This document shows positions 188 to 20,000 of a stretch of 20,000 bases of DNA, piece after piece. Made by a program: the position numbers and the translations under genes. The notes under the pieces are model-generated. The model saw only the letters and a list, made by a program, of their open reading frames with translations. It was not told the origin of the DNA and did not search any database. The stretch covers positions 55,253 through 75,252 of the IMG/VR virus record IMGVR_UViG_3300020469_000033. One strand, given 5' to 3'. This DNA is from an uncultured virus (IMG/VR IMGVR_UViG_3300020469_000033) (taxonomy: Duplodnaviria > Heunggongvirae > Uroviricota > Caudoviricetes). Position 1 is the first letter of the stretch; every line of letters begins with the position of its first letter.

Positions 188-1936
188 ATGCCAACATTAG
201 AAGAATTATTTAAAAGTAGACAACTTCCCTCACAAGGTGGTAAAACCGCTGAAGAAGCATATGCTATACGAAATTCAAAAGATATTCGTATTTCAGCAGC
301 TGACCCATTTGTGAATACAGTTGGTATGTCATTGGCTAGATTAGCTAGAAAAAATTTAGGAGCTAAAGGAAGTGAAACTCTTTTAGAAGAAGAAGTAACA
401 GGAGCTAGATTAATAAGAACGGCATCAATGCCATTTATATATGGTAGTGAATTACCAAGATTAACACTTAGAACTACTACACTTTTGGATACAATGAGAG
501 CAGCAACTGGTGGTGATGATGGTGGTGGTGGTCCATTGGGTAATCTTATCAAAAAAGGTAGAGATGCAGTACTTAATAGTAAATTCTTAGGAATTCCACA
601 AACAATAATACCAACCAAAGTAGCTACTAATACTACAATTAAAGATACTTTAAAAAGTGGTGAAATTCAAAAAAACTATTTAGAGGTATTAAAAAAAGCA
701 AAAACTGACGGTACTGGGAAACCATTAGGTCAATTTCTAAAAGGCACTGGTGGTGGTAATATAAAAGATATTGGTAAACAAGCATTAGGTAGTGCAATAA
801 AATTAGGAAAAGATAGGTTAAGAGAAGGATTATTCGGAAAAGCTGGTACAACCGGATTCAATGGGGCATCGTTAGTAGGTTTAAAAAATACAACAACAAA
901 TTATGGTAGTATTGATAGTGCCACTGGTGTAACAATTGCCCCCGCAGATGCAGATGGGATAATAGATGCTAAAGGCTTAATGTACTCCAAAACATTTAAT
1001 CTAAATATACCATTAAATAAAGATGGTAAAGATACAAGAGTTGGTTTAGATAAAAATAAACAAAATGACCCAAATCCTAACAAACTAGATTTTAGTGATA
1101 TATCAGATGAAGGTGGATTGGGTGGAAGGTATTCAAAGGCTCTAAAAGATTTAGATACCCCAAATAAGATATTATTCAGTTCAAACCCTGATAGAAAAGG
1201 AAAATCATTTGCAAGTAAGATTAGAGGACCAATATCAAAAAATGATTTTATAGAAAAGAAAAGAGGTATGGGTCAAATTGCTGATACTATTAATAATACC
1301 AATATCTTTGAAGGTGAAACTCTTACATTAGGTGATGGAACAACTTTAGATGAACAAGATTTTGTACCATTAAAATTTACCTCAATACATAGAAATAAAA
1401 CTGTACAATTTAGAGCAACATTAAGTGGATTGAGTGAAACACTTTCTCCATCTTGGGATTCTCATAAGTTTATTGGTTCACCATTCAGTAATTACACATA
1501 TAGTGGAATAGAAAGAAGTGTAACTTTTAATTTTAAAGTTTATTCATTAAATGCAGTAGAACATAAAATTGGATGGGATAAAATTAACTTTTTAAATTCA
1601 TTAGTATTCCCACAAGGGTATTATGATTCATCTGCAGTAGTTCCACCATTTATTAGATTAACAATTGGTGATTTATATAAAGGTAAATTATCATTTATAG
1701 AATCTTTATCACATACATGGGATGATAATACTCCTTGGAATGTAACTGATAAAGAAAAAACAGTATTATCGAATGCAGTAGGAATTATAACAGGTACTCC
1801 TGAGAATGCTGATATAGATATGAAAGGATATCGATTACCAATGATTACTGATGTATCAATGACTGTTAAATTTTTAATAGGTAGAAATAATACATCAGGT
1901 AGAAAATTCTATTCATTTGAACCTCAAAGTAAATAA
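188..1936 (+). CDS. Baseplate/tail-tube initiator-like protein (T4 gp48/gp54, P2 gpU-like C-terminal domain) with a long N-terminal extension
   Basis: 582 aa. The C-terminal ~200 aa (FRATLSGLSETLSPSW..IG....YTYSGIERSVTFNFKV...PPFIRLTIGDLY...IESLSHTWD..W) fit the tube-like baseplate pattern. Position between tape measure and LysM genes agrees. Confidence 0.65.
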   Translation: MPTLEELFKSRQLPSQGGKTAEEAYAIRNSKDIRISAADPFVNTVGMSLARLARKNLGAKGSETLLEEEVTGARLIRTASMPFIYGSELPRLTLRTTTLLDTMRAATGGDDGGGGPLGNLIKKGRDAVLNSKFLGIPQTIIPTKVATNTTIKDTLKSGEIQKNYLEVLKKAKTDGTGKPLGQFLKGTGGGNIKDIGKQALGSAIKLGKDRLREGLFGKAGTTGFNGASLVGLKNTTTNYGSIDSATGVTIAPADADGIIDAKGLMYSKTFNLNIPLNKDGKDTRVGLDKNKQNDPNPNKLDFSDISDEGGLGGRYSKALKDLDTPNKILFSSNPDRKGKSFASKIRGPISKNDFIEKKRGMGQIADTINNTNIFEGETLTLGDGTTLDEQDFVPLKFTSIHRNKTVQFRATLSGLSETLSPSWDSHKFIGSPFSNYTYSGIERSVTFNFKVYSLNAVEHKIGWDKINFLNSLVFPQGYYDSSAVVPPFIRLTIGDLYKGKLSFIESLSHTWDDNTPWNVTDKEKTVLSNAVGIITGTPENADIDMKGYRLPMITDVSMTVKFLIGRNNTSGRKFYSFEPQSK

Positions 1937-2235: not shown

Positions 2236-4545
2236 ATGGGAACATTTCCAAAATTTTCAAATATTGCGGGATATGCTACGAAAACCTTAGAAAGTAGAAA
2301 ACGTAGTGTATATAACGTATCTAAGTTAAATGCTTGGGTAAGAGTAACATCTGCCGTTTCTGGTAATAAGGGAGATGGGTTGACATTAGTATCTAATCCA
2401 AATTTTAGATTATTTGGAGCTGCTGGTGTTTCTTCTATTTATGGAATTAATAAACAAAGTGGTACTATTGGTGAAACTTGGGGAGGTTCCCCAATAAATC
2501 CATCAGAGGGGCAAGGTTATAAACCTTCTCCAATTATTGAATCTATTGAAATAGATGAGGGAGCTGGTAATTTAAGTAGAAAAGCTAATTTTACAATTAA
2601 ATGTTTTTCTAAAGACCAAATGGAATTAATAACTGAATATTTTCAAGAACCAGGATTTACTGTATTTTTAGAATGGGGATGGAATACACCAGACTCTATG
2701 AAAGGTTTAGTAAAAAAATTAAATGCAAACAATATAGCTAATTTTCAAAATTTCAAAAATCTAACAACCAAAAGAGAAGCATCTAAAGGACAATATGATA
2801 ATTATTTAGGATTTATAACTGGTGGAGGAATTGCAACTGAAGGTGAAAATTGGACTGTTGAAGTAAAATGTACGGGGTTCACCGAATTACCAGCCTATTT
2901 AGTAAATGGTGATAATTCTGGTGATGCCATTGATAAAAAATCTAAAAAAGAACCTGATTATAAAAATTTAAGTCTTGAAACTGATTTAAATATAAAACGA
3001 TGGATGTTTGCTTATAACGCATTACCATCTAATAGAAAAACTGCAGAAATTAAATCATTGGCTACTAAAACTGATGATTCCCTTAGAAAAGTACCAATAG
3101 CACAAGCAGTTAACTATATAAACTTTGATGAAACGATTACTGATAGTTTAAACAACAAAGCAGATGGAACTGCTGTTGGAAGATTCTTTGGTGTAGGTGG
3201 TTCAAAAGAAAAGGGTGAGGATGGTAACACAGAACGTATAGAAATCCCTGCAGGTACTAAAATAGTTGGTAGTGAAAAATTTATAAGATTTGGTACTCTT
3301 ATGAAGATAATGAACCAAATGATTATAAAGGGTTTAAAAATAGGAAAAAAGACAGTTTCTATGGAAATCCACTCAGAGCATACTATATGTTCAGCTTATC
3401 CAAATATATTTAGTACTGATAAAAGTAAGTTATTAATACCAAATATAAAAACACCAAGATTTAGTTTTCTTGATGCTAAAAATAATACAAAATCATTAGA
3501 AGCAATACCATCACCACCTGAAGATTGTTCGATAGAATATGATGGTAGAAAAATACAATTTCCTTTTGAAAACGCTATTAATGGTGGTTCTGTTTTAGTT
3601 GATGGTACATCCTATGATTTACAATATAAAGATGGTACTACACCAGCAAGTGAATGTATAGACAAACCACAAGGTAAATGGGGGTTTTTAGATGATTTAT
3701 ATGTAAACTTTGATTTCGCATCGGGTATTATGGGAACAAGTAACTTTACAGTAAAAGATGCTCTATATCAAATTCTAAATGGAATGTCCTCCGCTGTAAA
3801 TGATTTATGGAATTTTCAGATTATGGAAACAACTTTGGAAAATGATAAGGGAAAATTAAAAAAGGGAGACCAAATAATCACAATACAAGAAACTAATTTT
3901 ACATATAAACCAAAAGTAAACCCATATACATTTAATTTAATAGGTACTGATTCTATTTTCAAAGATGCTTCGTTAAATTTGGATATGAGTGCTGCTAAGA
4001 TGAATCAAGTTATCGGTTCAAGATTGGCAAAAAAAATTAATGGTGAAACTCAACCGCTTTTTGGTAGATTAGACGCAGGTAATATTACTGATTTAGTTTT
4101 AAAAGAAATAGATTCTAGAAAAGAAGCACCAATAGAAGAAAAAAGCGGAAAAGAAACAGATGAAGAACTAAAAGAAAAGAATTACGCTAATTTTTTAGGT
4201 AAAATAGGTACATATCCTAAAGTACAATTTGAAAAAAAGGATATAAAACCTAAGTATGTTGTGCAAGAAAAAACTTATGCATCTGTTTATGATGATAAAC
4301 AATTGCTAAAAATGGCTAAATCTGATATGGAAGAAGAAGAAGGTGTATCCATTTTATTACCAATTAATTTTACATTTACTGTATATGGTGTTAGTGGTAT
4401 AAAAAGAGGAGACAGGTTTGCTGTAAAAGGTATCCCAGCAAAATATGAAAAGCAGGGATTTTTCCAAGTTTTAGGTGTAAAACATACTATTCAAGGAATG
4501 GAATGGCTTACTGAAGTTGAAGGTGGATTTAGAAACAATACATAA
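2236..4545 (+). CDS. Baseplate hub protein (gp27/VgrG/Mu gp44-like)
   Basis: 769 aa. N-terminal ANFTIKCFS..Q.E...YFQEPGFTVFLEWGW and C-terminal GIKRGDRFAVKGIP..Y...FFQVLGVKHTI...W.TEVEG resemble hub beta-barrel ends. It follows the LysM gene. Confidence 0.6.
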   Translation: MGTFPKFSNIAGYATKTLESRKRSVYNVSKLNAWVRVTSAVSGNKGDGLTLVSNPNFRLFGAAGVSSIYGINKQSGTIGETWGGSPINPSEGQGYKPSPIIESIEIDEGAGNLSRKANFTIKCFSKDQMELITEYFQEPGFTVFLEWGWNTPDSMKGLVKKLNANNIANFQNFKNLTTKREASKGQYDNYLGFITGGGIATEGENWTVEVKCTGFTELPAYLVNGDNSGDAIDKKSKKEPDYKNLSLETDLNIKRWMFAYNALPSNRKTAEIKSLATKTDDSLRKVPIAQAVNYINFDETITDSLNNKADGTAVGRFFGVGGSKEKGEDGNTERIEIPAGTKIVGSEKFIRFGTLMKIMNQMIIKGLKIGKKTVSMEIHSEHTICSAYPNIFSTDKSKLLIPNIKTPRFSFLDAKNNTKSLEAIPSPPEDCSIEYDGRKIQFPFENAINGGSVLVDGTSYDLQYKDGTTPASECIDKPQGKWGFLDDLYVNFDFASGIMGTSNFTVKDALYQILNGMSSAVNDLWNFQIMETTLENDKGKLKKGDQIITIQETNFTYKPKVNPYTFNLIGTDSIFKDASLNLDMSAAKMNQVIGSRLAKKINGETQPLFGRLDAGNITDLVLKEIDSRKEAPIEEKSGKETDEELKEKNYANFLGKIGTYPKVQFEKKDIKPKYVVQEKTYASVYDDKQLLKMAKSDMEEEEGVSILLPINFTFTVYGVSGIKRGDRFAVKGIPAKYEKQGFFQVLGVKHTIQGMEWLTEVEGGFRNNT

Positions 4546-4931: not shown

Positions 4932-6215
4932 ATGATTGTAGTAGAATCTAATAAAGAGAAAGAGAATTTTATGCAAATGTGGGAAAACAATCCCTCAATT
5001 GTAATTCCTATATGGTCTGATTTGGATAAACATCCAATGAACAATGAACTTGCCTTCTTATTCGTAAGAGTGGGAAAAACTGACTTTATTCTCATATATA
5101 ATCATATTGATGGTAAATCCCACCATTTAGACCTTTCAACCTCAACACAACCAAAATGGGTATGGAATAAGAAAGGCTTATTACAAACTGATACAAATAT
5201 ACAAAATATTTTTGATATATCCAACTATTACTTCTTTGAAAAGAATCAAACTATACCTTATGAGGTACAAAATCAATCGTTTATCTCACATTATATCCGA
5301 ATGGGTATAAGAGATGGTTTAGGAAAGATAGCACCTATAATGAAATGGGGAGAGTATTTAAAATCATTTGTTGATAATATAAGTAGTACTATTCCCCCTC
5401 CCGATTTATCTCCTAAAAGTTGGGTTGATAATACGATGATTCCTCTATTATCTCAGATTGAACGATATGGGGTTCGGGTCGATGGAGGAAAATTTTTTGA
5501 TAGATATCCACAAGCTACTAAACATTTAAACAACAATATCGTATATACCGAATATAACCCATATACTATTACATCCCGTCCTTCCAACCGATTTGGGGGA
5601 ATCAACTTCTCTGCTTTAAATAAAAAGGATGGAACGAGAGAAGTATTTATTCCCAAAGATGGGCACATATTCCTACAAATGGATTATGATGCCTATCACC
5701 CCCGAATCATAGGTAAGTTGATTGATTACGAATTACCCGATACTTCGGTTCACCAATGGTTAGCGGACCAATATGGTGTTGATTATGGTGAATCTAAAGG
5801 AATTACATTCCAACTCCTTTATGGTGGGATACCCGAAGAATTCGATTCTATTCCTTATTATAAGAAGGTTAGAGAGTACATCGATGAAATGTGGGGTAAC
5901 GCATCCAAAAAAGGTTATGTATCGACTTACAATCGAAATATACCCCTTAGTTCGATAGAAGGTTTGAATCCACAAAAAGTATTCAACTATTTACTACAAG
6001 CAACTGAAACTGAGTTAAATATGGATACAATGAGGAAAGTGTTGGAGTTTATTGAACAAACCGACATTGAGTTAAGTTTATACACTTATGATTCATTCTT
6101 ATTTTCTTTTCCATTGGATACTCCTAAAGAACAAGCCCTTAAATTAAAAGAAATTGTAGAAAGTAATGGGTTTCCTATAAATGCTAGTTGGGGAACGGAT
6201 TACTCAAAACTTTAA
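4932..6215 (+). CDS. Reduced, divergent family A DNA polymerase-like protein
   Basis: 427 aa. TITSRPSN..INFSALNK (TGRLSS..NLQNIP equivalent), motif A FLQMDYDAYHPR, motif B SKGITFQLLYG, NYLLQATE, motif C LYTYDSFLF. No 5'-3' exonuclease domain and no clear ExoI DxE motif. Confidence 0.85.
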   Translation: MIVVESNKEKENFMQMWENNPSIVIPIWSDLDKHPMNNELAFLFVRVGKTDFILIYNHIDGKSHHLDLSTSTQPKWVWNKKGLLQTDTNIQNIFDISNYYFFEKNQTIPYEVQNQSFISHYIRMGIRDGLGKIAPIMKWGEYLKSFVDNISSTIPPPDLSPKSWVDNTMIPLLSQIERYGVRVDGGKFFDRYPQATKHLNNNIVYTEYNPYTITSRPSNRFGGINFSALNKKDGTREVFIPKDGHIFLQMDYDAYHPRIIGKLIDYELPDTSVHQWLADQYGVDYGESKGITFQLLYGGIPEEFDSIPYYKKVREYIDEMWGNASKKGYVSTYNRNIPLSSIEGLNPQKVFNYLLQATETELNMDTMRKVLEFIEQTDIELSLYTYDSFLFSFPLDTPKEQALKLKEIVESNGFPINASWGTDYSKL

Positions 6216-6242: not shown

Positions 6243-8066
6243 ATGAACAAAAACGAATTAATCAAAGAATTATTATCTGAGTTATCTTATCGTTCTAACG
6301 AAGGATACCCTATGTTAGATAATAGAGAACAAATATCTATTCTAGCTGAGATATTAGATGAGTGGGGATATACCAAAATCAAAAACGAATTAATTGAAAA
6401 TCTTTTAGAAGCAGATGATAAAAAATTTACTGCTACAAAGAAAGATACAAACCAAACAGTAGCATTTGATAGTGAAGAAGCAAGAGATGCAGCGATTGAA
6501 AAGGGAACTCATACTAAGAAAGAAGATTCTGAAGAAGATGATTCTAAAAAAAAGAAAAAAGATATGTTTTCCTCAGAAGCTGGATATGAAGCTCCTGATT
6601 TAAAAAAGGATGATGATATTGATACAACTCCCAAATCAAAAAATTCAAAACTAAAAAAATTACCAAAAGAAGAATCAATTAAAATAGACCACAATTCAGC
6701 TGATAAGTCTCTTATGATGACTAAGACAGAAGCTAAAGCTCAAGCTCAACGAACAAAAGCTGGTGAAACACAAAATGTTGGAGCTGGGACACCTGAATCA
6801 AGAGCTGGTGAAGCTATGGTTCATAAAGGTTTAAGATTATTACAAAGTGGTAAATCATTGGAAGAAATAGAAGAGGAGTTTTCTAAAATAGTAAATTCAG
6901 ATGACCATATATTAAATTCTAAAACAGGTAAAAAATGGGTATCATCTACATTATCTAGTTTAAAAAAGATAGATGAGGTTATTGGGATAGAAAATATTCA
7001 AGATGTTGCATGGGATACTGATGCTGGTAGAATAGCTATTGGTGTAGACCCTAATTTAGAAACATCATCGGATATGTTTGTTAGAACTAAAGATGGTAAA
7101 AATATTGGGTTATCTCTTAAAAAAGATGGAAATGTATTCTTAAATAATGGTGGTTGGGCCAAACAATCTAAATTATTATTAGGTGATTTAAAATCACAAA
7201 TGGGTAATGAATCTCATAAAAAATTATCTGAAGCAATGTCAATTAAAGCATATGAGGATGATTTAACTGATAGGTTTAAATCTATCAGTAGTACTATTAC
7301 AGTAGATACTATTAAAGAAGATTTTGAAAGATTAAAGAATGAACCTGAAATATTGAAAAAATATTTTGGTGGTTCAAATCAACCGATATACTTTAGAGAA
7401 ATGGAAAATCCAGAAGTATTACATAGAAATATGGTTAATGGTAATTTGAGTAAGTATCAACAAAAAGTTTTAGCTAAGTTAACTCAAGCTTATCATAAAG
7501 AGGAATATAATCATTTAAGAAAATCTGAAGATGCATTAACTGAAAGAACATTTAATATATTGAACTCTGATAAAGAAGCCAAAGAAGGTATGAATAAACA
7601 TATCATAAAATCAATGCACATTACAGAAACACTGGGATTAAATAAAACAGTCAAAGAAGGTGGCGTAGATGGGTTCCAAACAATGTATGGTATTGAACCA
7701 GATGGTGCTGTATTAAATGAACAAACATTGATTACTTTATTTGGTTCTAATTTCCAAAATATATTACAAGAGCAAATAAAAGAGGTTAGAGATGGTAAAA
7801 AATCAGTTAAAGAATTAGAAAAAGCTATTTCTGATTCAATAGAAATTGATTATGAATCTGGTCAAATTTTATTTAAACATGAATCTCAAAAAAAGTTCCC
7901 ATTATTTAAATTACAAGGTAGAGCTAGAGGTATAGGAGCATCTCCTACAATGGAAATGTTACAAACTCCATTTATGGCCCATGCACTAAAGATGGGTACA
8001 TTCAATACCGATGAGTGGGATACAAAATCATTAGAAAGATTTAAAAAAGATATAGAGTTTATTTAA
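6243..8066 (+). CDS. Large hypothetical protein with an acidic/charged N-terminus and a putative PD-(D/E)xK-type nuclease core; possible virion-internal protein
   Basis: 607 aa. GEAMVH ... TSSDMFVRTKDGKNIGLSLKK resembles an E...D...SLK restriction-endonuclease-like site. The N-terminal helical leader with several [LI]xE sites is followed by a D/E/K low-complexity linker. Confidence 0.5.
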   Translation: MNKNELIKELLSELSYRSNEGYPMLDNREQISILAEILDEWGYTKIKNELIENLLEADDKKFTATKKDTNQTVAFDSEEARDAAIEKGTHTKKEDSEEDDSKKKKKDMFSSEAGYEAPDLKKDDDIDTTPKSKNSKLKKLPKEESIKIDHNSADKSLMMTKTEAKAQAQRTKAGETQNVGAGTPESRAGEAMVHKGLRLLQSGKSLEEIEEEFSKIVNSDDHILNSKTGKKWVSSTLSSLKKIDEVIGIENIQDVAWDTDAGRIAIGVDPNLETSSDMFVRTKDGKNIGLSLKKDGNVFLNNGGWAKQSKLLLGDLKSQMGNESHKKLSEAMSIKAYEDDLTDRFKSISSTITVDTIKEDFERLKNEPEILKKYFGGSNQPIYFREMENPEVLHRNMVNGNLSKYQQKVLAKLTQAYHKEEYNHLRKSEDALTERTFNILNSDKEAKEGMNKHIIKSMHITETLGLNKTVKEGGVDGFQTMYGIEPDGAVLNEQTLITLFGSNFQNILQEQIKEVRDGKKSVKELEKAISDSIEIDYESGQILFKHESQKKFPLFKLQGRARGIGASPTMEMLQTPFMAHALKMGTFNTDEWDTKSLERFKKDIEFI

Positions 8067-10503: not shown

Positions 10504-12036
10504 ATGAAAATAGTTATAGCGGGTGGAGGAACTGCTGGTTGGTTATCAGCATTATTCCTAGCCAAACAAAATTTACACAGAGATATTCCAGCTTACGATA
10601 TTACTCTTATAGAGAGTGATGATATTCCAATTATAGGAGCTGGTGAAGGTTCAACCGGAGTACTTCAAAAAATACTTTTATCTACTTTAACTGAATTCGA
10701 TGGATTTGGAGAAAAGGAGTTTTTTGAAAATTGTAATACTACATTTAAATTAGGAATTGATTGTATTGATTGGAATGGGGTAGGTGATAGATTCTTTGAA
10801 TCGTTATCTGGAACACAAACTTCAGATTGGCCATTGGATAGGGATTTTACTATTTGTTCTAAATACGGAAAAGCTCCAGATTCCAGTCCTAACAAATATC
10901 TTTGGGAAAAAAATCTAACACCATTTTTAAAAACTGAAAATAGTGATAGTTACGAAACTGGATATGCTTATCACTTTGATGCACATAAAGTTGGTGAGTG
11001 GTTTAAAAAGATTGCATTAGAAAATGGAATTAAATTACAAAAAGGTACAATAACTGATACAAATCTAAATCCTAAAAATGGTGAATTACAAAAATTAATT
11101 TTAAAAGATGGAACTAAAATAGAATCTGATTTTTGGATTGATTGTACCGGATTCAATAGAGTATTGAGTAAGGCAGTTGGAGCAGAATGGATTTCATATT
11201 CAGAATACCTTCCAATTAATTCAGCATTAGTTTATACACATCAATATGAAAAGGATGAAGAAATTCCAAACGTAACAACTGCATGGGCAATGCCAAATGG
11301 TTGGATGTGGCAAATTCCAACTCAAGAGAGATTAGGATGTGGATATTGTTATTCTGATAAGTTTGTATCTGAGGAACAAGCTCTGAAAGAACTACAAGAA
11401 GTTACTGGTAGAAAGATAACACCTCTTAGAACTATTAAGTTCGATAGTGGTAGGTTGAAAGAAGTTTGGAAAAAGAATGTACTTTCAATAGGATTATCAT
11501 CTTCCTTCTTAGAACCATTAGAAGCAACATCAATACATTCATCCATAATTCAGTTAGTACAACTAACACAACATCACTTATCACCTTACAAAGAGGATAT
11601 GATGAGAGAATCAAACATCAAAGCAAATAACGAACACTTTAATATGATGTTAGATGAATTTAGAGGTTTGATTCAAATGCACTATATTACAAAAAGAAAT
11701 GATACTCCATTTTGGAAATATGTACATAATGATTTAAAGAGAGACCCATTAGTTGAAAAAATTTTAGAAATATGTAAATATAGAGTTCCAAATGGAAATG
11801 ATTTTCCATATTACAATGGAGCTGCTAGTTGGGGTGTATTCAATTGGATATTGGCTGGCAATGATTTAATTAGTAAAGAGGTATTGGATAAATCTCTAAA
11901 TACTCATAATTTTGAAAAATCATCTGAAAAAGTTTATAAACATATGGTAAAGCAATTTGCATTTGATAGTAAACAACACTTTCCACATACTGAATTTATC
12001 AATTGGACAAAAGATTTTTCAAAAAAACCAAAATAA
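10504..12036 (+). CDS. Flavin-dependent halogenase, tryptophan halogenase (PrnA/RebH) family
   Basis: 510 aa. GGGTAG FAD-binding motif, IGAGEGST, TFKLGI (catalytic Lys equivalent), YAYHFDA, WIDCTGF, GWMWQIP (WxWxIP) and FLEPLEATSI. Confidence 0.93.
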   Translation: MKIVIAGGGTAGWLSALFLAKQNLHRDIPAYDITLIESDDIPIIGAGEGSTGVLQKILLSTLTEFDGFGEKEFFENCNTTFKLGIDCIDWNGVGDRFFESLSGTQTSDWPLDRDFTICSKYGKAPDSSPNKYLWEKNLTPFLKTENSDSYETGYAYHFDAHKVGEWFKKIALENGIKLQKGTITDTNLNPKNGELQKLILKDGTKIESDFWIDCTGFNRVLSKAVGAEWISYSEYLPINSALVYTHQYEKDEEIPNVTTAWAMPNGWMWQIPTQERLGCGYCYSDKFVSEEQALKELQEVTGRKITPLRTIKFDSGRLKEVWKKNVLSIGLSSSFLEPLEATSIHSSIIQLVQLTQHHLSPYKEDMMRESNIKANNEHFNMMLDEFRGLIQMHYITKRNDTPFWKYVHNDLKRDPLVEKILEICKYRVPNGNDFPYYNGAASWGVFNWILAGNDLISKEVLDKSLNTHNFEKSSEKVYKHMVKQFAFDSKQHFPHTEFINWTKDFSKKPK

Positions 12037-14236: not shown

Positions 14237-14473
14237 ATGAGCAAATTAAAAGAAATGTTAAAATCATCTGCGCAAGCAGATAAGGCAAAGGCACTCCTTA
14301 CTTTGGAGTTGTTGGAAAAGCATCCTGCAGGAATTGGAGACCACTCAACTGGTGATTTCTATGAAAATGCAGAATCAGCATTACAAATGTTGGTAGATGC
14401 AAATGATAGATTAGAAACCATTGAAGAATATTTTGGTGGTGAAGGTATCACTTATACAACAACAACTACATAA
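14237..14473 (+). CDS. Small conserved-looking phage helical protein
   Basis: 78 aa with a PAGIGDH turn between two helices, reminiscent of small PVGIGEH proteins of large marine phages. Coupled to the next gene by TAATG. Confidence 0.7.
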   Translation: MSKLKEMLKSSAQADKAKALLTLELLEKHPAGIGDHSTGDFYENAESALQMLVDANDRLETIEEYFGGEGITYTTTTT

Positions 14474-15519
14474 TGAAAGGACTCTACAAAGATATCCTCA
14501 ACGAAGTGAGTGAGGAACATAAGACTAATCATCTTCGAGAAAGGAATAGTAGGGTTTTAATTATTGATGGACTAAACACCTTCATCCGAAGTTGGACAAC
14601 CAACCCCACAATGAATGAGGATGGTGACCATACGGGTGGGGTGATTGGCTCCCTCAAATCTATTGGATACCAAATTAGAGAATTCAATCCAACCCGATGT
14701 ATTGTAACCTTTGATGGTAAAAATGGTTCTCAATCAAGAAAGAAAATCCACGAAGGATATAAAGCTGGTAGAGAGAAAAACCGATTCCGAGTAAACCGTC
14801 AATATCAAGGTATGATGGATGAGGAGCAGGAAAGACTTTCTATGAAACAACAATTTGTTTGGTTAAATGATATATTAGATTATCTTCCAGTTCAAACTAT
14901 GATTTATGATGGTATTGAGGCAGATGATACAATAGCATATTTAACTAAACATAATGAATCTGATTTAGGTAATGAAGTTGTTATTGTTTCAACTGATAAA
15001 GATTTCCTTCAATTAGTTTCTGATAAAGTAAAAGTATTTTCACCTACTAAAAAGAAAATGTACAATAGACAAGTTGTATTTGATGAGTTTGGTATATGGC
15101 CTGAGAATCTTTTATTATATAGAACATTGGATGGTGATAAATCAGATAACATACCAGGTATCAGAGGATGTGGTATAAAAACTCTTTTAAAGAGGTTTCC
15201 TGAACTTTCTGAGGATAGAACAATAACACATGAGGACCTATTTCAAATGTGTGAGGAGAAGCAAGGTAAAATCAAATTATATGATGATATCTTAAAAGCA
15301 AAAGACCAACTTCTTATGAATAAAAGATTAATGGAGTTAGATGAACCCCATATACCAACAAATCAGAAGCTAAACATCTTAGATAGATTTAATGAAAGTG
15401 ATATTGAATTTAAGAAGTTAGATTTCCTTAGAGTAGGTCAGAAATATAAGGTACTCCAAAATTGGAGAGACATTAATGATTGGTTACATTCAACCTTTCA
15501 TAATATTATTACAAAATAA
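14473..15519 (+). CDS. 5'-3' exonuclease / flap endonuclease (Pol I N-terminal domain, T4 RNase H-like)
   Basis: 348 aa. IIDGLN, FDG, YKAGR, EADD, STDKDFLQL, GDKSDNIPGIRGCGIKT (H3TH). Confidence 0.95.
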   Translation: MKGLYKDILNEVSEEHKTNHLRERNSRVLIIDGLNTFIRSWTTNPTMNEDGDHTGGVIGSLKSIGYQIREFNPTRCIVTFDGKNGSQSRKKIHEGYKAGREKNRFRVNRQYQGMMDEEQERLSMKQQFVWLNDILDYLPVQTMIYDGIEADDTIAYLTKHNESDLGNEVVIVSTDKDFLQLVSDKVKVFSPTKKKMYNRQVVFDEFGIWPENLLLYRTLDGDKSDNIPGIRGCGIKTLLKRFPELSEDRTITHEDLFQMCEEKQGKIKLYDDILKAKDQLLMNKRLMELDEPHIPTNQKLNILDRFNESDIEFKKLDFLRVGQKYKVLQNWRDINDWLHSTFHNIITK

Positions 15520-15573: not shown

Positions 15574-16932
15574 ATGCAGAACATAGATACTCTTTCCAAA
15601 TACGGACAATCATTTCAAACAAAGGTTTTATCATCTTTGATTACTGATGTTCGTTTATTGGATACTCTTAGTGAGATTATACATCCAAAGTTTTTTGAAG
15701 CTGAGGCAAACAAATGGATAGCAGAAGAGGTTGTTTCTTATTACGATGAGTTTAAGAAATCTCCAACGTTAGATGTTTTTAAATCAGAAGTTTCAAAGTT
15801 AGATGATAAAGGTTTTCAGAAAAGTGTAGTGGAGCAACTAAAATCAGTATTTACCAAAGTTGGTGATTCTGATTTAGATTATGTAAAGAAAGAGTTTTCT
15901 TCGTTTTGTATCAACCAAAACTTAAAACAAGCAATCGTTAGTTCAGTTGATTTACTAAAGGCTGGTAACTATGATAGAATCAAAGATTTAGTAGATAAAG
16001 CAATGAAGGTAGGAGTGGATTCAGATATGGGACACGATTACCTTTTAGATTTTGAAGAAAGAACTAATGAAGTTGATAGAAGTACAGTTCCAACTGGTTG
16101 GGATTGTATTAATGAACTTATGGATGGTGGTTTGGGACCTGGCGAATTAGGAGTAGCAGTAGCACCTTCTGGTGTTGGTAAAACTTGGGTACTATGTGCA
16201 TTAGGAGCAGCAGCTGTTAAGCAAGGATTAAATGTAGTACATTACTCTTTAGAATTATCAGAACATTATGTGGGACAACGATACGATACTGTATTTACAC
16301 AAATCCCATCTGCAGATGTGAAAGATAAGAAAGAAGTAGTATTGGAGAAAATCAATAGATTGAGTGGAAAACTTCTTATTAAGTATTTCCCACCTAAAGG
16401 TATATCTGCTAAAAAATTAGAATCCCATATTGAGAAGATGACAGCAGCAGGAACTAAACCTGATTTAATAATCATTGATTATGCTGATTTGTTATTATCT
16501 CATACTAATAAATCTGATTCAACTTATGGAGAGCAAGGTGGAGTTTACATTGAGTTGAGAGGTATTAGTGGTGAATTAGGTATTCCTATTTGGACAGCAT
16601 CCCAAACCAATCGTTCAGCAATTGATTCTGAAGTTATTGAAGCTGATAAAGTAGCAGATTCTTACGCTAAAGTAATGAACGCAGATTTCATTATGAGTAT
16701 CAGTAGAAAAGCTAAAGATAAATTAAACAATACTGCAAGGTTCCATATTATGAAAAACCGATTTGGACCTGATGGTATCACCTTCCCTTCTAAAATGGAT
16801 ACAAATACTGGATTCATTGAGGTGTATGATGGTAACTCTTCAGATGGAATCATCACACAAAAGGAATCTGCTAATGGAGAGCAGATGGAAAAGAAATTAC
16901 TCCATAAAAAATATGTAGAGAATTTTGGATAG
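15574..16932 (+). CDS. dnaB: Replicative DNA helicase, DnaB/T4 gp41-like
   Basis: 452 aa. APSGVGKT (Walker A), YSLEL, IIIDYADL (Walker B), WTASQTNR, KNRFG. Confidence 0.93.
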   Translation: MQNIDTLSKYGQSFQTKVLSSLITDVRLLDTLSEIIHPKFFEAEANKWIAEEVVSYYDEFKKSPTLDVFKSEVSKLDDKGFQKSVVEQLKSVFTKVGDSDLDYVKKEFSSFCINQNLKQAIVSSVDLLKAGNYDRIKDLVDKAMKVGVDSDMGHDYLLDFEERTNEVDRSTVPTGWDCINELMDGGLGPGELGVAVAPSGVGKTWVLCALGAAAVKQGLNVVHYSLELSEHYVGQRYDTVFTQIPSADVKDKKEVVLEKINRLSGKLLIKYFPPKGISAKKLESHIEKMTAAGTKPDLIIIDYADLLLSHTNKSDSTYGEQGGVYIELRGISGELGIPIWTASQTNRSAIDSEVIEADKVADSYAKVMNADFIMSISRKAKDKLNNTARFHIMKNRFGPDGITFPSKMDTNTGFIEVYDGNSSDGIITQKESANGEQMEKKLLHKKYVENFG

Positions 16933-17071: not shown

Positions 17072-17101
17072 ACCGAACAACATTCGAGTGTTCGGTTTTT
17101 T
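17072..17101 (+). terminator. Intrinsic terminator-like hairpin (or 5' leader hairpin) upstream of the Hc1-like gene
   Basis: ACCGAACA (17072-17079) pairs with TGTTCGGT (17089-17096), 9-nt loop, followed by a T-run to 17101. Confidence 0.6.
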
Positions 17102-17131: not shown

Positions 17132-17302
17132 ATGGCAAATTCACAACAAATTTTCGAAGAAATCACAGAACTATTTTCTCAATTTGAGGAAAATCACAAC
17201 TCATCAACTAAAGCGGGTAAATCAAGAGCAAGAAAAGCAATTGGTGAAATCAAAAAGTTGGTAACTGATTATAGAAAAGCATCTGTAGAAGAAAATAAGT
17301 AA
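17132..17302 (+). CDS. Histone H1-like protein Hc1 family (Bacteroidota-type short form); missing from the supplied ORF track
   Basis: Hand translation, 56 aa: MANSQQIFEEITELFSQFEENHNSSTKAGKSRARKAIGEIKKLVTDYRKASVEENK. KA..RARK...EI.KL...(Y/F)RK.S is the Hc1 N-terminal domain pattern. A-rich start context. Confidence 0.8.
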   Translation: MANSQQIFEEITELFSQFEENHNSSTKAGKSRARKAIGEIKKLVTDYRKASVEENK

Positions 17303-17307
17303 TTAGA

Positions 17308-17718
17308 ATGGAAGTTCTCGAATATCTCAAAAATCATTTAAAAACTGATATTGCACCATCTCCCATAGACGGAATTGGTACATTTGCACTAACTGATATT
17401 AAAGTTGGTGAACCAGTTTTTTGGTTATGGCCCAATGAAAGTAGGATTTATACGATTGATAAAAGTGAGTTCGAAGAACTTCCAGACTTTACTAAAAAAT
17501 TAATTTTAAAATCATATCTTAATAAACCTGAATATCCTCTTATTTGGTTTAGATTATTTAAAGATTGTTATTTTAATTTAGCAAACCCATTAGTTTATAC
17601 AAATACAGCTGAAAAAGATGGTAACTTTGATTCGATGAAAAGGGTAGCAATAAAACCCATAAAAGCTGGGGATGAAATTTTAGGAACTTATAATTTAAAC
17701 GATACAATATTAAAATGA
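17308..17718 (+). CDS. SET-domain protein (putative lysine methyltransferase, variant NHS motif)
   Basis: 136 aa. SPIDGIGTFALTDIKVGE (SET-N), YTNTAEKDGN (in place of INHSCxPN), AIKPIKAGDEILGTY (SET-C with terminal Tyr). Confidence 0.8.
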   Translation: MEVLEYLKNHLKTDIAPSPIDGIGTFALTDIKVGEPVFWLWPNESRIYTIDKSEFEELPDFTKKLILKSYLNKPEYPLIWFRLFKDCYFNLANPLVYTNTAEKDGNFDSMKRVAIKPIKAGDEILGTYNLNDTILK

Positions 17719-18026
17719 CATTTGATGAATTGATTGATAACATCACCCAATGGGCTGATGATAAGGGAATACTTGTTTCTGATAATATACCACAACAAAC
17801 TATGAAAGTTATGGAAGAGTTGGGTGAAACAGCAGGAGCAATTTTAAAAAATAAAAAGACAGATGAGGTCATCGATGGGATAGGTGATATCTTAGTAACA
17901 GTTATAATTTTGAGTAAACAATTAGGTTTAGACCCTACCAAATGTTTGGAATCGGCATGGAATGAAATCAAAGATAGGAAAGGTAAAACAGTAAACGGTA
18001 CATTTATAAAACAAGAAGAACTATGA
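17715..18026 (+). CDS. MazG-like NTP pyrophosphohydrolase
   Basis: 103 aa. MEELGE ... IDGIGDILV acidic motifs; AWNEIKDRKGK..NGTFIK tail. ATGA overlaps on both sides. Confidence 0.88.
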   Translation: MTFDELIDNITQWADDKGILVSDNIPQQTMKVMEELGETAGAILKNKKTDEVIDGIGDILVTVIILSKQLGLDPTKCLESAWNEIKDRKGKTVNGTFIKQEEL

Positions 18027-19300
18027 GTAACTTTGTAGATACAACAGCGGAAAACGTAAGATTCGTAATTAAGAGAAATGGTGAAAAAGTTTCATTTGAA
18101 TTAAGTAAAATGAAAAGTGCAATTACCAAAGCTATGGAAAGCATCGATAAGGTAGATGTAGAAATGGTTGAAAAGATTGCAAATAGTAGTGAAATATCTA
18201 TTTATAGAAATCCAAATCATATCCCTCATGTAGATGAGATTCACGATATAGTGGAAAACAAACTAATGGATAGTGGTTTAAATGATGTAGCAAAAGAATA
18301 CATCATCTATCGTTCAAAACACCAACCAAATATATTTAAGAAAAGAGTAAATCTTAAACCTTACGAATATCCTCAGTTAGTAGAATATGTTGATGCTATT
18401 AGACACTCATATTGGGTTCATACTGAATTTAACTTTATTTCAGATGTACAAGATTTCAAAGTACATTTAAGTGATAAAGAAAGAACTTCAGTTACAAGAG
18501 CAATGTTGGCAATCTCACAAATTGAAATCGCTGTTAAATCATTTTGGGGAGATATCTACAAAAAAATGCCAAAACCTGAGATTGGAGCAGTTGGTGCAAC
18601 TTTCGCTGAATCGGAAGTTAGACATGCTGATGCATATTCCAACCTAATTCAAGTATTAGGATTAAACTCAGAGTTTGAAAATCTTTTACAGGTACCAGGT
18701 ATCAGAAAAAGAATTAAATATTTAGATAAAACAATAAATGCAAGTAGAGCAGTTGAAAATAAAGATTACTTTGAATCAGTTGTTCTATTTTCAATGTTTA
18801 TCGAAAATGTATCGTTGTTCTCACAATTTTTAGTTATTATGTCTTTCAACAAATACAAAAATGTATTGAAAGGTACTAGTAATGCAGTTGAGGCAACATC
18901 AAAAGAAGAAAAGATTCATGCAGAATTTGGATTTGATTTAGTAAATACAATCAAAAAAGAAAATCCAACTTGGTGGACTGATGAATTAAAAGAAGATTTA
19001 ATTGATGCAACTTTAGATGCATATGATGCAGAAGCAGATATAGTTGAATGGATTTTTGAAGAAGGAGATTTAGATTTCCTAACTAAACAACAAACTTTAG
19101 AATTCATTAAACATAGATTTAACGAATCATTAAATGCTATTGGGATTGATGGTGTATTTAGTGTAGATGATAAAATATTAGAAACTACTGAGTGGTTTGA
19201 TGATGAAATTCTAACTACAAAACACACTGATTTCTTTAATAAAAGAAGTATTAATTATAGTAAAAAACAAAAGTCAATCACAGAAGATGACTTATTTTAA
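18023..19300 (+). CDS. nrdB: Class I ribonucleotide reductase small subunit with N-terminal ATP-cone (class Id/NrdBi-like)
   Basis: 425 aa. VIKRNGEKVSFELSKMKSAITKA...VDEIHDIVENKLM...VAKEYIIYR is an ATP-cone. Ferritin-like ligands QIEIAVK, EVRHADAY, IENVSLF and EEKIH follow, with a C-terminal DFFNKRSINY. Confidence 0.93.
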   Translation: MSNFVDTTAENVRFVIKRNGEKVSFELSKMKSAITKAMESIDKVDVEMVEKIANSSEISIYRNPNHIPHVDEIHDIVENKLMDSGLNDVAKEYIIYRSKHQPNIFKKRVNLKPYEYPQLVEYVDAIRHSYWVHTEFNFISDVQDFKVHLSDKERTSVTRAMLAISQIEIAVKSFWGDIYKKMPKPEIGAVGATFAESEVRHADAYSNLIQVLGLNSEFENLLQVPGIRKRIKYLDKTINASRAVENKDYFESVVLFSMFIENVSLFSQFLVIMSFNKYKNVLKGTSNAVEATSKEEKIHAEFGFDLVNTIKKENPTWWTDELKEDLIDATLDAYDAEADIVEWIFEEGDLDFLTKQQTLEFIKHRFNESLNAIGIDGVFSVDDKILETTEWFDDEILTTKHTDFFNKRSINYSKKQKSITEDDLF

Positions 19301-19317
19301 AAAGTTATAGATAAATT

Positions 19318-20000
19318 ATGAACGATAGAAAACCCTTTGAGTGGATTAATGAAGAATCCATCACCTTTCTTAGAAGAGGATATCTAAGTGAAGGAGAAGA
19401 ACCCTTACAAAGAATTAAAATTATTGCAGACCATGCTGAGAAACTATTAGGAATCGATGGATTCGCTGATAAGTTTTATGGATATATGAGTAAAGGATGG
19501 TATTCTTTATCATCACCAGTTTGGGCAAACTTTGGTAAACAAAGGGGATTACCTGTTAGTTGTTTTGGTTCAAATATTGGAGATAATATCGAATCAATTC
19601 TTTTTACACAAGCTGAAGTTGGTGAAATGAGTAAAATGGGAGGTGGTACTTCTGGTTACTTTGGAAACCTAAGAGGTAGAGGGGCACCAATTACTGATAA
19701 TGGTCATGCACCAGGCGCTGTTCACTTTATGAACTTATTCCAAAGTGTTGTTGATAACATTTCACAAGGTTCAACTCGAAGAGGTAGATTCTCACCTTAC
19801 TTACCAATAGAACATCCAGATATTATGGAGTTCTTAGAAATTGGAACTGAAGGAGCTACAATCCAAGACTTAACTCATGCCGTAACTGTAACTGATGAGT
19901 TTATGGAATCTATGATTGCTGGTGATAAAGATAAAAGAGCTGCTTGGGCAAAGGTAATTCAAAGAAGAGGAGAAATAGGATATCCTTATATTATGTTCCA
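19318..20000 (+). CDS. nrdA: Class I ribonucleotide reductase large subunit, N-terminal part (runs off the window); no ATP-cone
   Basis: Hand translation from ATG 19318: MNDRKPFEWINEESITFLRRGYL...SLSSPVWANFGKQRGLPVSCFGS...SKMGGGTSGYFGNLRGRG...SQGSTRRG...HPDIMEFL...GYPYIMF, open to the window end. Confidence 0.93.
   Translation, partial: MNDRKPFEWINEESITFLRRGYLSEGEEPLQRIKIIADHAEKLLGIDGFADKFYGYMSKGWYSLSSPVWANFGKQRGLPVSCFGSNIGDNIESILFTQAEVGEMSKMGGGTSGYFGNLRGRGAPITDNGHAPGAVHFMNLFQSVVDNISQGSTRRGRFSPYLPIEHPDIMEFLEIGTEGATIQDLTHAVTVTDEFMESMIAGDKDKRAAWAKVIQRRGEIGYPYIMF

Follow-up and report, generated by a model that had tools for sequence, protein, structure and literature searches.

Does a bacteriophage encode both a histone-like protein and the enzyme that methylates it? 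This question is raised by a 20,000-nucleotide (nt) stretch of DNA (hereafter the window) that forms the final 20 kb of the 75,252-bp IMG/VR record IMGVR_UViG_3300020469_000033, an uncultured tailed virus sequence whose completeness is 38% by CheckV. Two neighbouring open reading frames (ORFs) of the window code a protein with an Hc1 domain and a protein with a SET fold, and an earlier note on this DNA had proposed that they are substrate and writer of a viral chromatin system. The positions of the two ORFs, their + strand and the 5 nt between the Hc1 stop and the SET start match exactly those given there (Table 1). The pairing, which had been read from the adjacency of the two ORFs, is not the reading we retain: adjacency is limited to the closest subclade of the window, and the presence of SET tracks that of MazG rather than that of Hc1. 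The best explanation would be that of two real genes, each accounted for separately, within a replication and nucleotide-metabolism block of a large marine phage.

Both ORFs are real genes. The product of the first matches the Pfam Hc1 profile (PF07432) with 36.7 bits, against a cut-off of 23.5, over positions 2-56 of 57, which confirms the identity proposed for the small ORF, and an Hc1 match is found again in a six-frame search of the record (35.6 bits). In the protein collection 663 proteins of similar length are related to it, and viral contigs contain 418 relatives. The SET protein has 81 relatives in the protein collection clustered at 90% identity and 192 in viral contigs; an exhaustive search of the 50% representatives retrieved 63 relatives, 25 of them at E <= 1e-10. 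The SET family is small. In three pairwise comparisons with relatives the ratio of nonsynonymous to synonymous substitution rates (dN/dS) is 0-0.10 for the Hc1 ORF and 0.135-0.157 for the SET ORF. Purifying selection acts on both, and the low dN/dS values together with the many relatives lead to the assignment of the two ORFs as genes. Public collections already list homologues among their called proteins, the Hc1 homologue of Flavobacterium phage immuto (56% identical) being annotated as "hypothetical protein". No family for the Hc1 protein or the SET protein was found in PHROGs and NCBIfam.

The designation "histone-like" does not allow a DNA-condensing role to be carried over to the phage Hc1 protein. 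Chlamydial HctA/Hc1 is described (PMC3469542) as a Lys-rich, highly basic protein of ~126 amino acids (aa) whose N-terminal part is conserved and whose DNA-binding domain is found in the divergent C-terminal region. The phage protein, in contrast, is the 57-position Pfam domain only, which would correspond to the chlamydial N-terminal domain. It has no Lys-rich tail and, since chlamydial DNA binding is C-terminal, the condensing function is not transferable. The whole protein has an isoelectric point (pI) of 8.06, with 10 K+R and 9 D+E, a composition that, with the missing tail, speaks against the role in DNA compaction put forward for it earlier. In its AlphaFold model (predicted local distance difference test, pLDDT, 95.8) two helices, spanning positions 4-21 and 27-55, form a hairpin. 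The first half, an acidic helix, has 0 K+R and 5 D+E while the second, a basic helix, has 10 K+R and 4 D+E. A Foldseek search of the PDB with this model gave 0 matches at E <= 1e-3, retrieving only generic helical hairpins and dimerisation domains, and nothing meaningful was found in the PDB by sequence (best E 0.31). A search for Hc1 forms that are longer, bear a tail or are fused gave ten hits; the five inspected are upstream-extended gene calls or unrelated fusions (with an SAF fragment and with a membrane/cyclic nucleotide monophosphate (cNMP) protein), and none of these five has a Lys/Ala tail or is an Hc1-SET fusion. The phage Hc1 would be a small protein that oligomerises and is associated with nucleic acid or with the replisome; because it has no Lys-rich tail, it is not read as a histone-H1-like condenser.

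Hc1-family proteins are not new to phages. In a 2025 article (PMC12619734), PF07432 proteins are reported in four complete genomes of "moraphages", a group of large aquatic phages for which Flavobacteriia hosts are predicted, and the authors speculate that Hc1 serves genome compaction there; the terms "SET domain" and "methyltransferase" do not occur in that article. The window thus shares with the moraphages the presence of a phage PF07432 protein in large aquatic phages, whereas its helicase is only 42-44% identical to those of the nearest cultured phages (Microcystis phage Mel-JY01, 44%; Flavobacterium phage immuto, 42%). The earlier statement that no such phage system was known to have been described is half right, the Hc1 part being contradicted by this publication.

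The second ORF codes for a protein that matches the Pfam SET profile (PF00856) along its entire length (1-105 of 105; E 5e-4) with 20.9 bits, just below the cut-off of 22.4. Among its aligned relatives 18 of 19 match the profile at E <= 0.01 (best 6.6e-6), and one, the protein P0093, scores 24.8 bits, above the cut-off. The AlphaFold model (pLDDT 95.6) has the SET beta-fold and superposes on active SET enzymes. Relatives and fold together uphold the SET assignment of the earlier note, and we conclude that the fold of the 136-aa protein is genuinely that of SET. A dUTPase-like or SAF-like identity, considered for a weak SAF match (E 0.098) and the nucleotide-metabolism neighbours, was rejected as all structural matches listed for the model are SET enzymes. 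In an alignment of 47 sequences, reaching down to 23% identity, G22, G24, N99 and E123 never vary, and Y128 and N106 are conserved in at least 90% of the sequences. The GxG motif, which serves in S-adenosylmethionine (SAM) binding, is provided by G22 and G24 in HGIGTFA, aligned with HGRGLF of MLL1 in a profile-to-PDB alignment. The C-terminal E-L-x-x-x-Y motif, which holds the catalytic tyrosine, is present in GDEILGTY (E123 and Y128), aligned with GEELTYDY of MLL1. The protein is probably an active enzyme, predicted from these motifs to be a SAM-dependent methyltransferase.

SET-fold proteins of tailed phages are already in public annotation. Structural matches in BFVD/UniProt include SET proteins of "uncultured Caudovirales phage" (A0A6J5L8Y2, E 2.9e-5; A0A6J5P3I3; A0A6J5PTS6; A0A6J5SSB1) that are just 14-22% identical to the window SET, and a tblastn search of 50,697 phage records, a set that may lack close ones, with the window SET gave no match at E <= 0.01. 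A known likeness is vSET of Paramecium bursaria chlorella virus 1 (PDB 3kma): the window SET is vSET-like and minimal, but its NHS motif reads NTA. vSET, from a virus of a eukaryote, methylates histone H3 K27, while the phage host has no histones. Phage SET-type protein-lysine methyltransferases are essentially unstudied. Nothing linking a SET domain to Flavobacteria phages was found in the literature outside subscription journals, no SET domain was mentioned among the matches listed for jumbo or huge phages, and among the matches listed for phage-encoded SET lysine methyltransferases there was, to go by titles and the openings of the abstracts, no paper on the subject.

The genomic linkage of the two genes was surveyed from both sides, using the best 80 of the 418 viral-contig relatives of Hc1 and the best 80 of the 192 of SET. 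The two sets of loci share contigs, many of which are near-identical and all of which belong to one lineage; the counts are therefore of contigs, not of independent events, and shared descent can explain them. In the Hc1-centred set SET is found directly downstream in 23 of 80 loci and 1-2 kb downstream in 7. It is missing from at least 2.5 kb of downstream DNA in 28 and from 600-2500 nt in 13, the other 9 being not assessable. SET is thus present in 30 of the 71 assessable loci and absent from the downstream DNA examined in 41. Nearly all related loci have Hc1 behind the DnaB gene, and where SET is lacking the gene next after Hc1 is that of the ribonucleotide reductase (RNR) small subunit. 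A SET profile search that detected 5 of 5 records known to carry SET (positive control) found none in five entire Hc1-bearing records: the complete 160-kb immuto genome, the 634-kb record LR745206 and three fragments. Two whole phage records (immuto and LR745206) therefore carry Hc1 and no SET. In the SET-centred set, 75 of the 80 loci could be assessed. Of these, 22 have Hc1 next to SET, each with a SET 63-89% identical to that of the window. Hc1 lies 0.9-1.3 kb upstream in 30 others and 1.3-2.1 kb upstream in 11, and in 12 at least 2 kb of upstream DNA is free of Hc1. Hc1-SET adjacency is confined to the closest subclade of the window.

Several gene orders are found in these loci (R2 and R1 being the RNR small and large subunit genes): Hc1-SET-MazG-R2, as in the window; Hc1-R2-SET-MazG-R1; Hc1-R2-methyltransferase-SET; and the SET-less Hc1-R2. 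When Hc1 and SET are not adjacent, a small subunit gene without ATP-cone is found between them in most loci (e.g., L134, Pfam E 5.4e-62), in some together with a class I methyltransferase gene (L171). In loci L049-L051 Hc1 is directly followed by an ATP-cone R2, with neither SET nor MazG; judged from gene order, the difference to the window is an insertion or deletion of SET-MazG. Given these several arrangements, the adjacency in the window would reflect gene order kept by descent combined with insertion or deletion of accessory genes, and no selection for an Hc1-SET pair. Hc1 would be a core gene behind the DnaB helicase throughout the lineage, and SET, a minimal vSET-like enzyme, an accessory gene travelling with MazG inside the RNR cluster. 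Note that the cone-less small subunits of related phages, found between Hc1 and SET or MazG, are only 31-33% identical to the ATP-cone subunit of the window; ATP-cones on the RNR small subunit have reportedly been described for Flavobacteriia.

The stretch of Hc1 put forward earlier as a methylation target, because its SRARKA segment resembles the ARKS context of histone H3, makes a weak argument. The sequence KSRARKAIGE[IV]KKLVTDYRK is identical in distinct Hc1 sequences from loci with SET adjacent (12), with SET nearby (5) and without SET (22), so its conservation owes nothing to SET, and no Hc1 residue co-varies with the presence of SET across the three groups. In the more distant homologues from metagenome-assembled genomes (MAGs) R34 and K35 do not vary and S31, R32 and A33 hardly do, while two more distant relatives have an R-to-K or an A-to-V change in the stretch. 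K35 is located in the middle of helix 2, with a local pLDDT of ~98. Since SET enzymes take up their substrates in extended peptide form, the mid-helix K35 is, on the AlphaFold model, an unlikely site of methylation as long as the protein stays folded. Better exposed in the same model would be K27 and K30, where helix 2 begins, and the C-terminal K56.

We consider it reasonably likely, from the motifs, that SET is an active SAM-dependent lysine methyltransferase whose substrate would be a basic protein of the host or of the phage. Such a protein is thought the likeliest target because the SET protein is acidic (pI 5.2), and Hc1 is one candidate. The first alternative to separately explained genes is precisely that SET methylates the phage Hc1 or a host homologue, tuning its DNA binding for nucleoid shut-off, replication or packaging. 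We regard it as unlikely, though not slight, on account of the linkage at the level of the gene module and of known enzymes acting on similar proteins. Several facts weigh in this direction and against our preferred reading. What survives of the conserved adjacency expected by the earlier note, which the survey found in 22 of 75 SET loci and 23 of 80 Hc1 loci, is a looser association: in 63 of 75 assessable SET loci a same-strand Hc1 gene precedes SET by no more than 2.1 kb. Five SET records without a nearby Hc1 were searched as well; Hc1 lies ~80 kb away in one (G011, 26.5 bits) and a sub-threshold match ~33 kb from SET in another (G010, 16.6 bits), the remaining three, all fragments, having none. 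Two of the five thus still have an Hc1-like ORF elsewhere and, with the module-level linkage, SET may depend on Hc1. The acidic SET protein and the basic Hc1 helix with its 10 K+R are electrostatically compatible, the two genes are spaced by 5 nt in one co-directional block, and the analysis identified no rival substrate to the candidate Hc1. The genome of Bacteroides thetaiotaomicron, used as a control, carries an Hc1-family ORF, so that host homologues exist in that phylum.

Precedents for SET enzymes acting on prokaryotic chromatin proteins also belong on this side. According to a review (PMC3980110), cpnSET of Chlamydia pneumoniae binds and methylates Hc1 (Murata et al. 2007) and Go1-SET of Methanosarcina mazei methylates MC1-alpha in vitro (Manzur and Zhou 2005). 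For NUE, a second chlamydial SET protein, from C. trachomatis, the review reports a failure to methylate Hc1, so the statement of the earlier note that chlamydial SET proteins methylate Hc1 is correct for cpnSET and did not apply to NUE. The likeness to cpnSET with Hc1/Hc2 is that SET enzyme and Hc1-family protein are encoded by one genome; the phage protein differs in being the Hc1 domain only. Go1-SET with MC1-alpha offers a functional model for an Hc1-SET pair, namely a prokaryotic SET enzyme with a small DNA-associated substrate; it is, however, archaeal and cellular, and the MC1-alpha family is unrelated to Hc1.

Against Hc1 as the substrate stand the restriction of adjacency to one subclade, the 41 of 71 assessable Hc1 loci with no SET in the downstream DNA examined and the two whole phage records with Hc1 but no SET. 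SET is also found far from Hc1 or without it, including in unrelated fusions. To these are added the lack of co-variation, the mid-helix position of K35, the absence of a tail like the DNA-binding one of chlamydial Hc1 and the failure of NUE. A fuller version, in which a lineage of large marine phages would possess a chromatin module whose vSET-like enzyme methylates a lysine of the basic helix of phage or host Hc1 and thereby, in the course of infection, switches how Hc1 associates with DNA or replisome, is in our opinion quite unlikely. If true, it would be the first bacteriophage-encoded writer/substrate pair for a nucleoid-type protein. At present there are two known kinds of genes that are neighbours, a situation that merits a bench test of the pair and no claim; the hypothesis is cheap to test.

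A further alternative is that SET and MazG would be a functional unit acting on nucleotide metabolism, with RNR or a different enzyme of its cluster methylated by SET, or with the two proteins jointly countering a host defence. In the window the TGA stop of SET overlaps the start of MazG (ATGA, read from the sequence). Of 76 assessable SET loci, 44 have a MazG gene that begins at the stop of SET and one has MazG just before SET, and in the loci termed type B the cassette has the small subunit gene of RNR on one side and the large subunit gene on the other. Overlaps are nevertheless common in phage operons, many relatives have MazG without SET (Hc1-R2-MazG), 31 SET loci lack an adjoining MazG (4 of the 80 were not assessable) and no fusion of SET to MazG or RNR was seen among the relatives. 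We hold such a unit to be improbable. Independently of its partners, the SET gene has a synonymous divergence (dS) of 0.36-1.13 relative to loci L024, L025 and L052, which is ~2-3 times the helicase value for these pairs (0.12-0.36) and also above that of the MazG and RNR flanks; dS values above those of the flanks suggest that the SET allele may have been exchanged by recombination.

The other associations of SET vary among relatives. In L159 (3149-4408), and likewise in L160-L164, a 420-aa protein combines an N-terminal DUF6065 domain (E 1.7e-70) with a C-terminal SET 56% identical to that of the window; its gene has that of a family B DNA polymerase on one side and that of an ATP-dependent DNA ligase on the other, and no relative of its DUF6065 domain was found in the PDB by sequence. 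In L171 (3424-4011) a class I (Rossmann) methyltransferase gene directly precedes SET, which it overlaps in some relatives, and in P0093 (328 aa) a class I methyltransferase domain is fused to SET: the pairing of two methyltransferases is, by sequence, recurrent. L019 (2965-3300; L019-L023) codes a SET protein of 111 aa whose motif is the canonical NHSENPN; its neighbours are a folE2-type GTP cyclohydrolase (E 1.5e-72) and, on the other side, an unknown 176-aa protein, and the 5.4-kb locus has no Hc1. The SET family is compact (~136 aa) and confidently predicted, and has testable candidate partners in Hc1, MazG, DUF6065 and the class I methyltransferase. Should SET modify a nucleoid-type protein, the logic of chromatin writers would extend to phage infection of bacteria; if its target is instead a protein of the host, phages would have in SET a new kind of tool for host takeover.

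The last alternative is that of a catalytically impaired SET protein acting as a non-enzymatic binder that would, for instance, sequester SAM or a host protein through its lysine. The NHS histidine is important in canonical SET enzymes. The window reads N99-T-A...N106 (NTAEKDGN) in place of NHSxxPN, which the distant members of the 47-sequence alignment keep in the same columns, as the earlier note had rightly observed; the histidine is missing in the window (replaced by Thr) and throughout its close clade, which reads N-T/A/S. This, with the Pfam score slightly below the cut-off, is consistent with impairment. PR/SET enzymes without NHS can be active, however, and the invariant G22, G24, N99 and E123, the nearly invariant Y128 and N106, the dN/dS of ~0.14-0.16 and a confidently modelled fold that superposes on active SET enzymes all argue for catalysis, which makes loss of activity a poor bet.

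The genes around the pair are listed in Table 1. Every gene of the replication and nucleotide-metabolism block has the same (+) orientation, and genes for a gp32-like protein, RecA and a protein of the tryptophan-halogenase family (Pfam) are found in it further upstream.

Table 1. Features of the window around the Hc1 and SET genes (positions are those of the window).
Feature	Position	Strand	Evidence
5'-3' exonuclease	14473-15519	+	Pfam
DnaB-like replicative helicase; conserved upstream neighbour of Hc1	15574..16932	+	Pfam DnaB_C E 1.2e-17
Terminator-like hairpin followed by a T-run, between helicase and Hc1	17072..17101	+	RNA fold
Hc1-domain protein, 56 aa, ATG start	17132..17302	+	Pfam PF07432 E 3.8e-9
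Minimal SET-fold candidate protein-lysine methyltransferase, 136 aa, ATG start	17308..17718	+	Pfam PF00856, motifs, fold model
MazG-like nucleotide pyrophosphohydrolase	17715..18026	+	Pfam MazG E 1.8e-5; PHROG 1992 E 7e-35; PHROG 715 E 2e-31
RNR small subunit with N-terminal ATP-cone	18023..19300	+	Pfam Ribonuc_red_sm E 1.9e-57; ATP-cone E 5.4e-21
RNR large subunit, continuing beyond the window end	19318..20000	+	Pfam Ribonuc_red_lgC E 2.2e-28; lgN E 2.4e-7

The segment 17060-17112, which contains the hairpin, folds with -11.6 kcal/mol (z -3.24), a value equalled by 1 of 200 shuffled sequences. A scan for consensus promoters and terminators near these genes gave none above the shuffled expectation and did not list the hairpin, whose loop is judged to be longer than the scan permits. 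The hairpin would act as a terminator behind the helicase gene, and a new transcription unit would begin at Hc1, from which the block would be co-transcribed. One relative with the same gene order (G004) is a 100% complete genome of 252,603 bp with one SET, so the phage of the window is probably of jumbo size. Its host may plausibly belong to the Bacteroidota; a search of genome contigs for cellular homologues yielded 8 MAG contigs only, with mixed labels, and is uninformative on this point.

Three large ORFs in the first part of the window (188-1936, 2236-4545 and 6243-8066) had no Pfam match. Between the last two, a 427-aa ORF (4932-6215, +) has a weak partial match to family A DNA polymerases (E 4.3e-7; 29.6 bits against a cut-off of 34.3) and may, by its sequence, be a split or divergent polymerase. 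The tryptophan-halogenase-family ORF (10504-12036, +; 510 aa; Pfam PF04820, E 6.7e-97) codes a member of a family of flavin-dependent enzymes and is placed among the replication genes, just upstream of those for the gp32-like protein and RecA, an unusual enzyme for a phage replication module.

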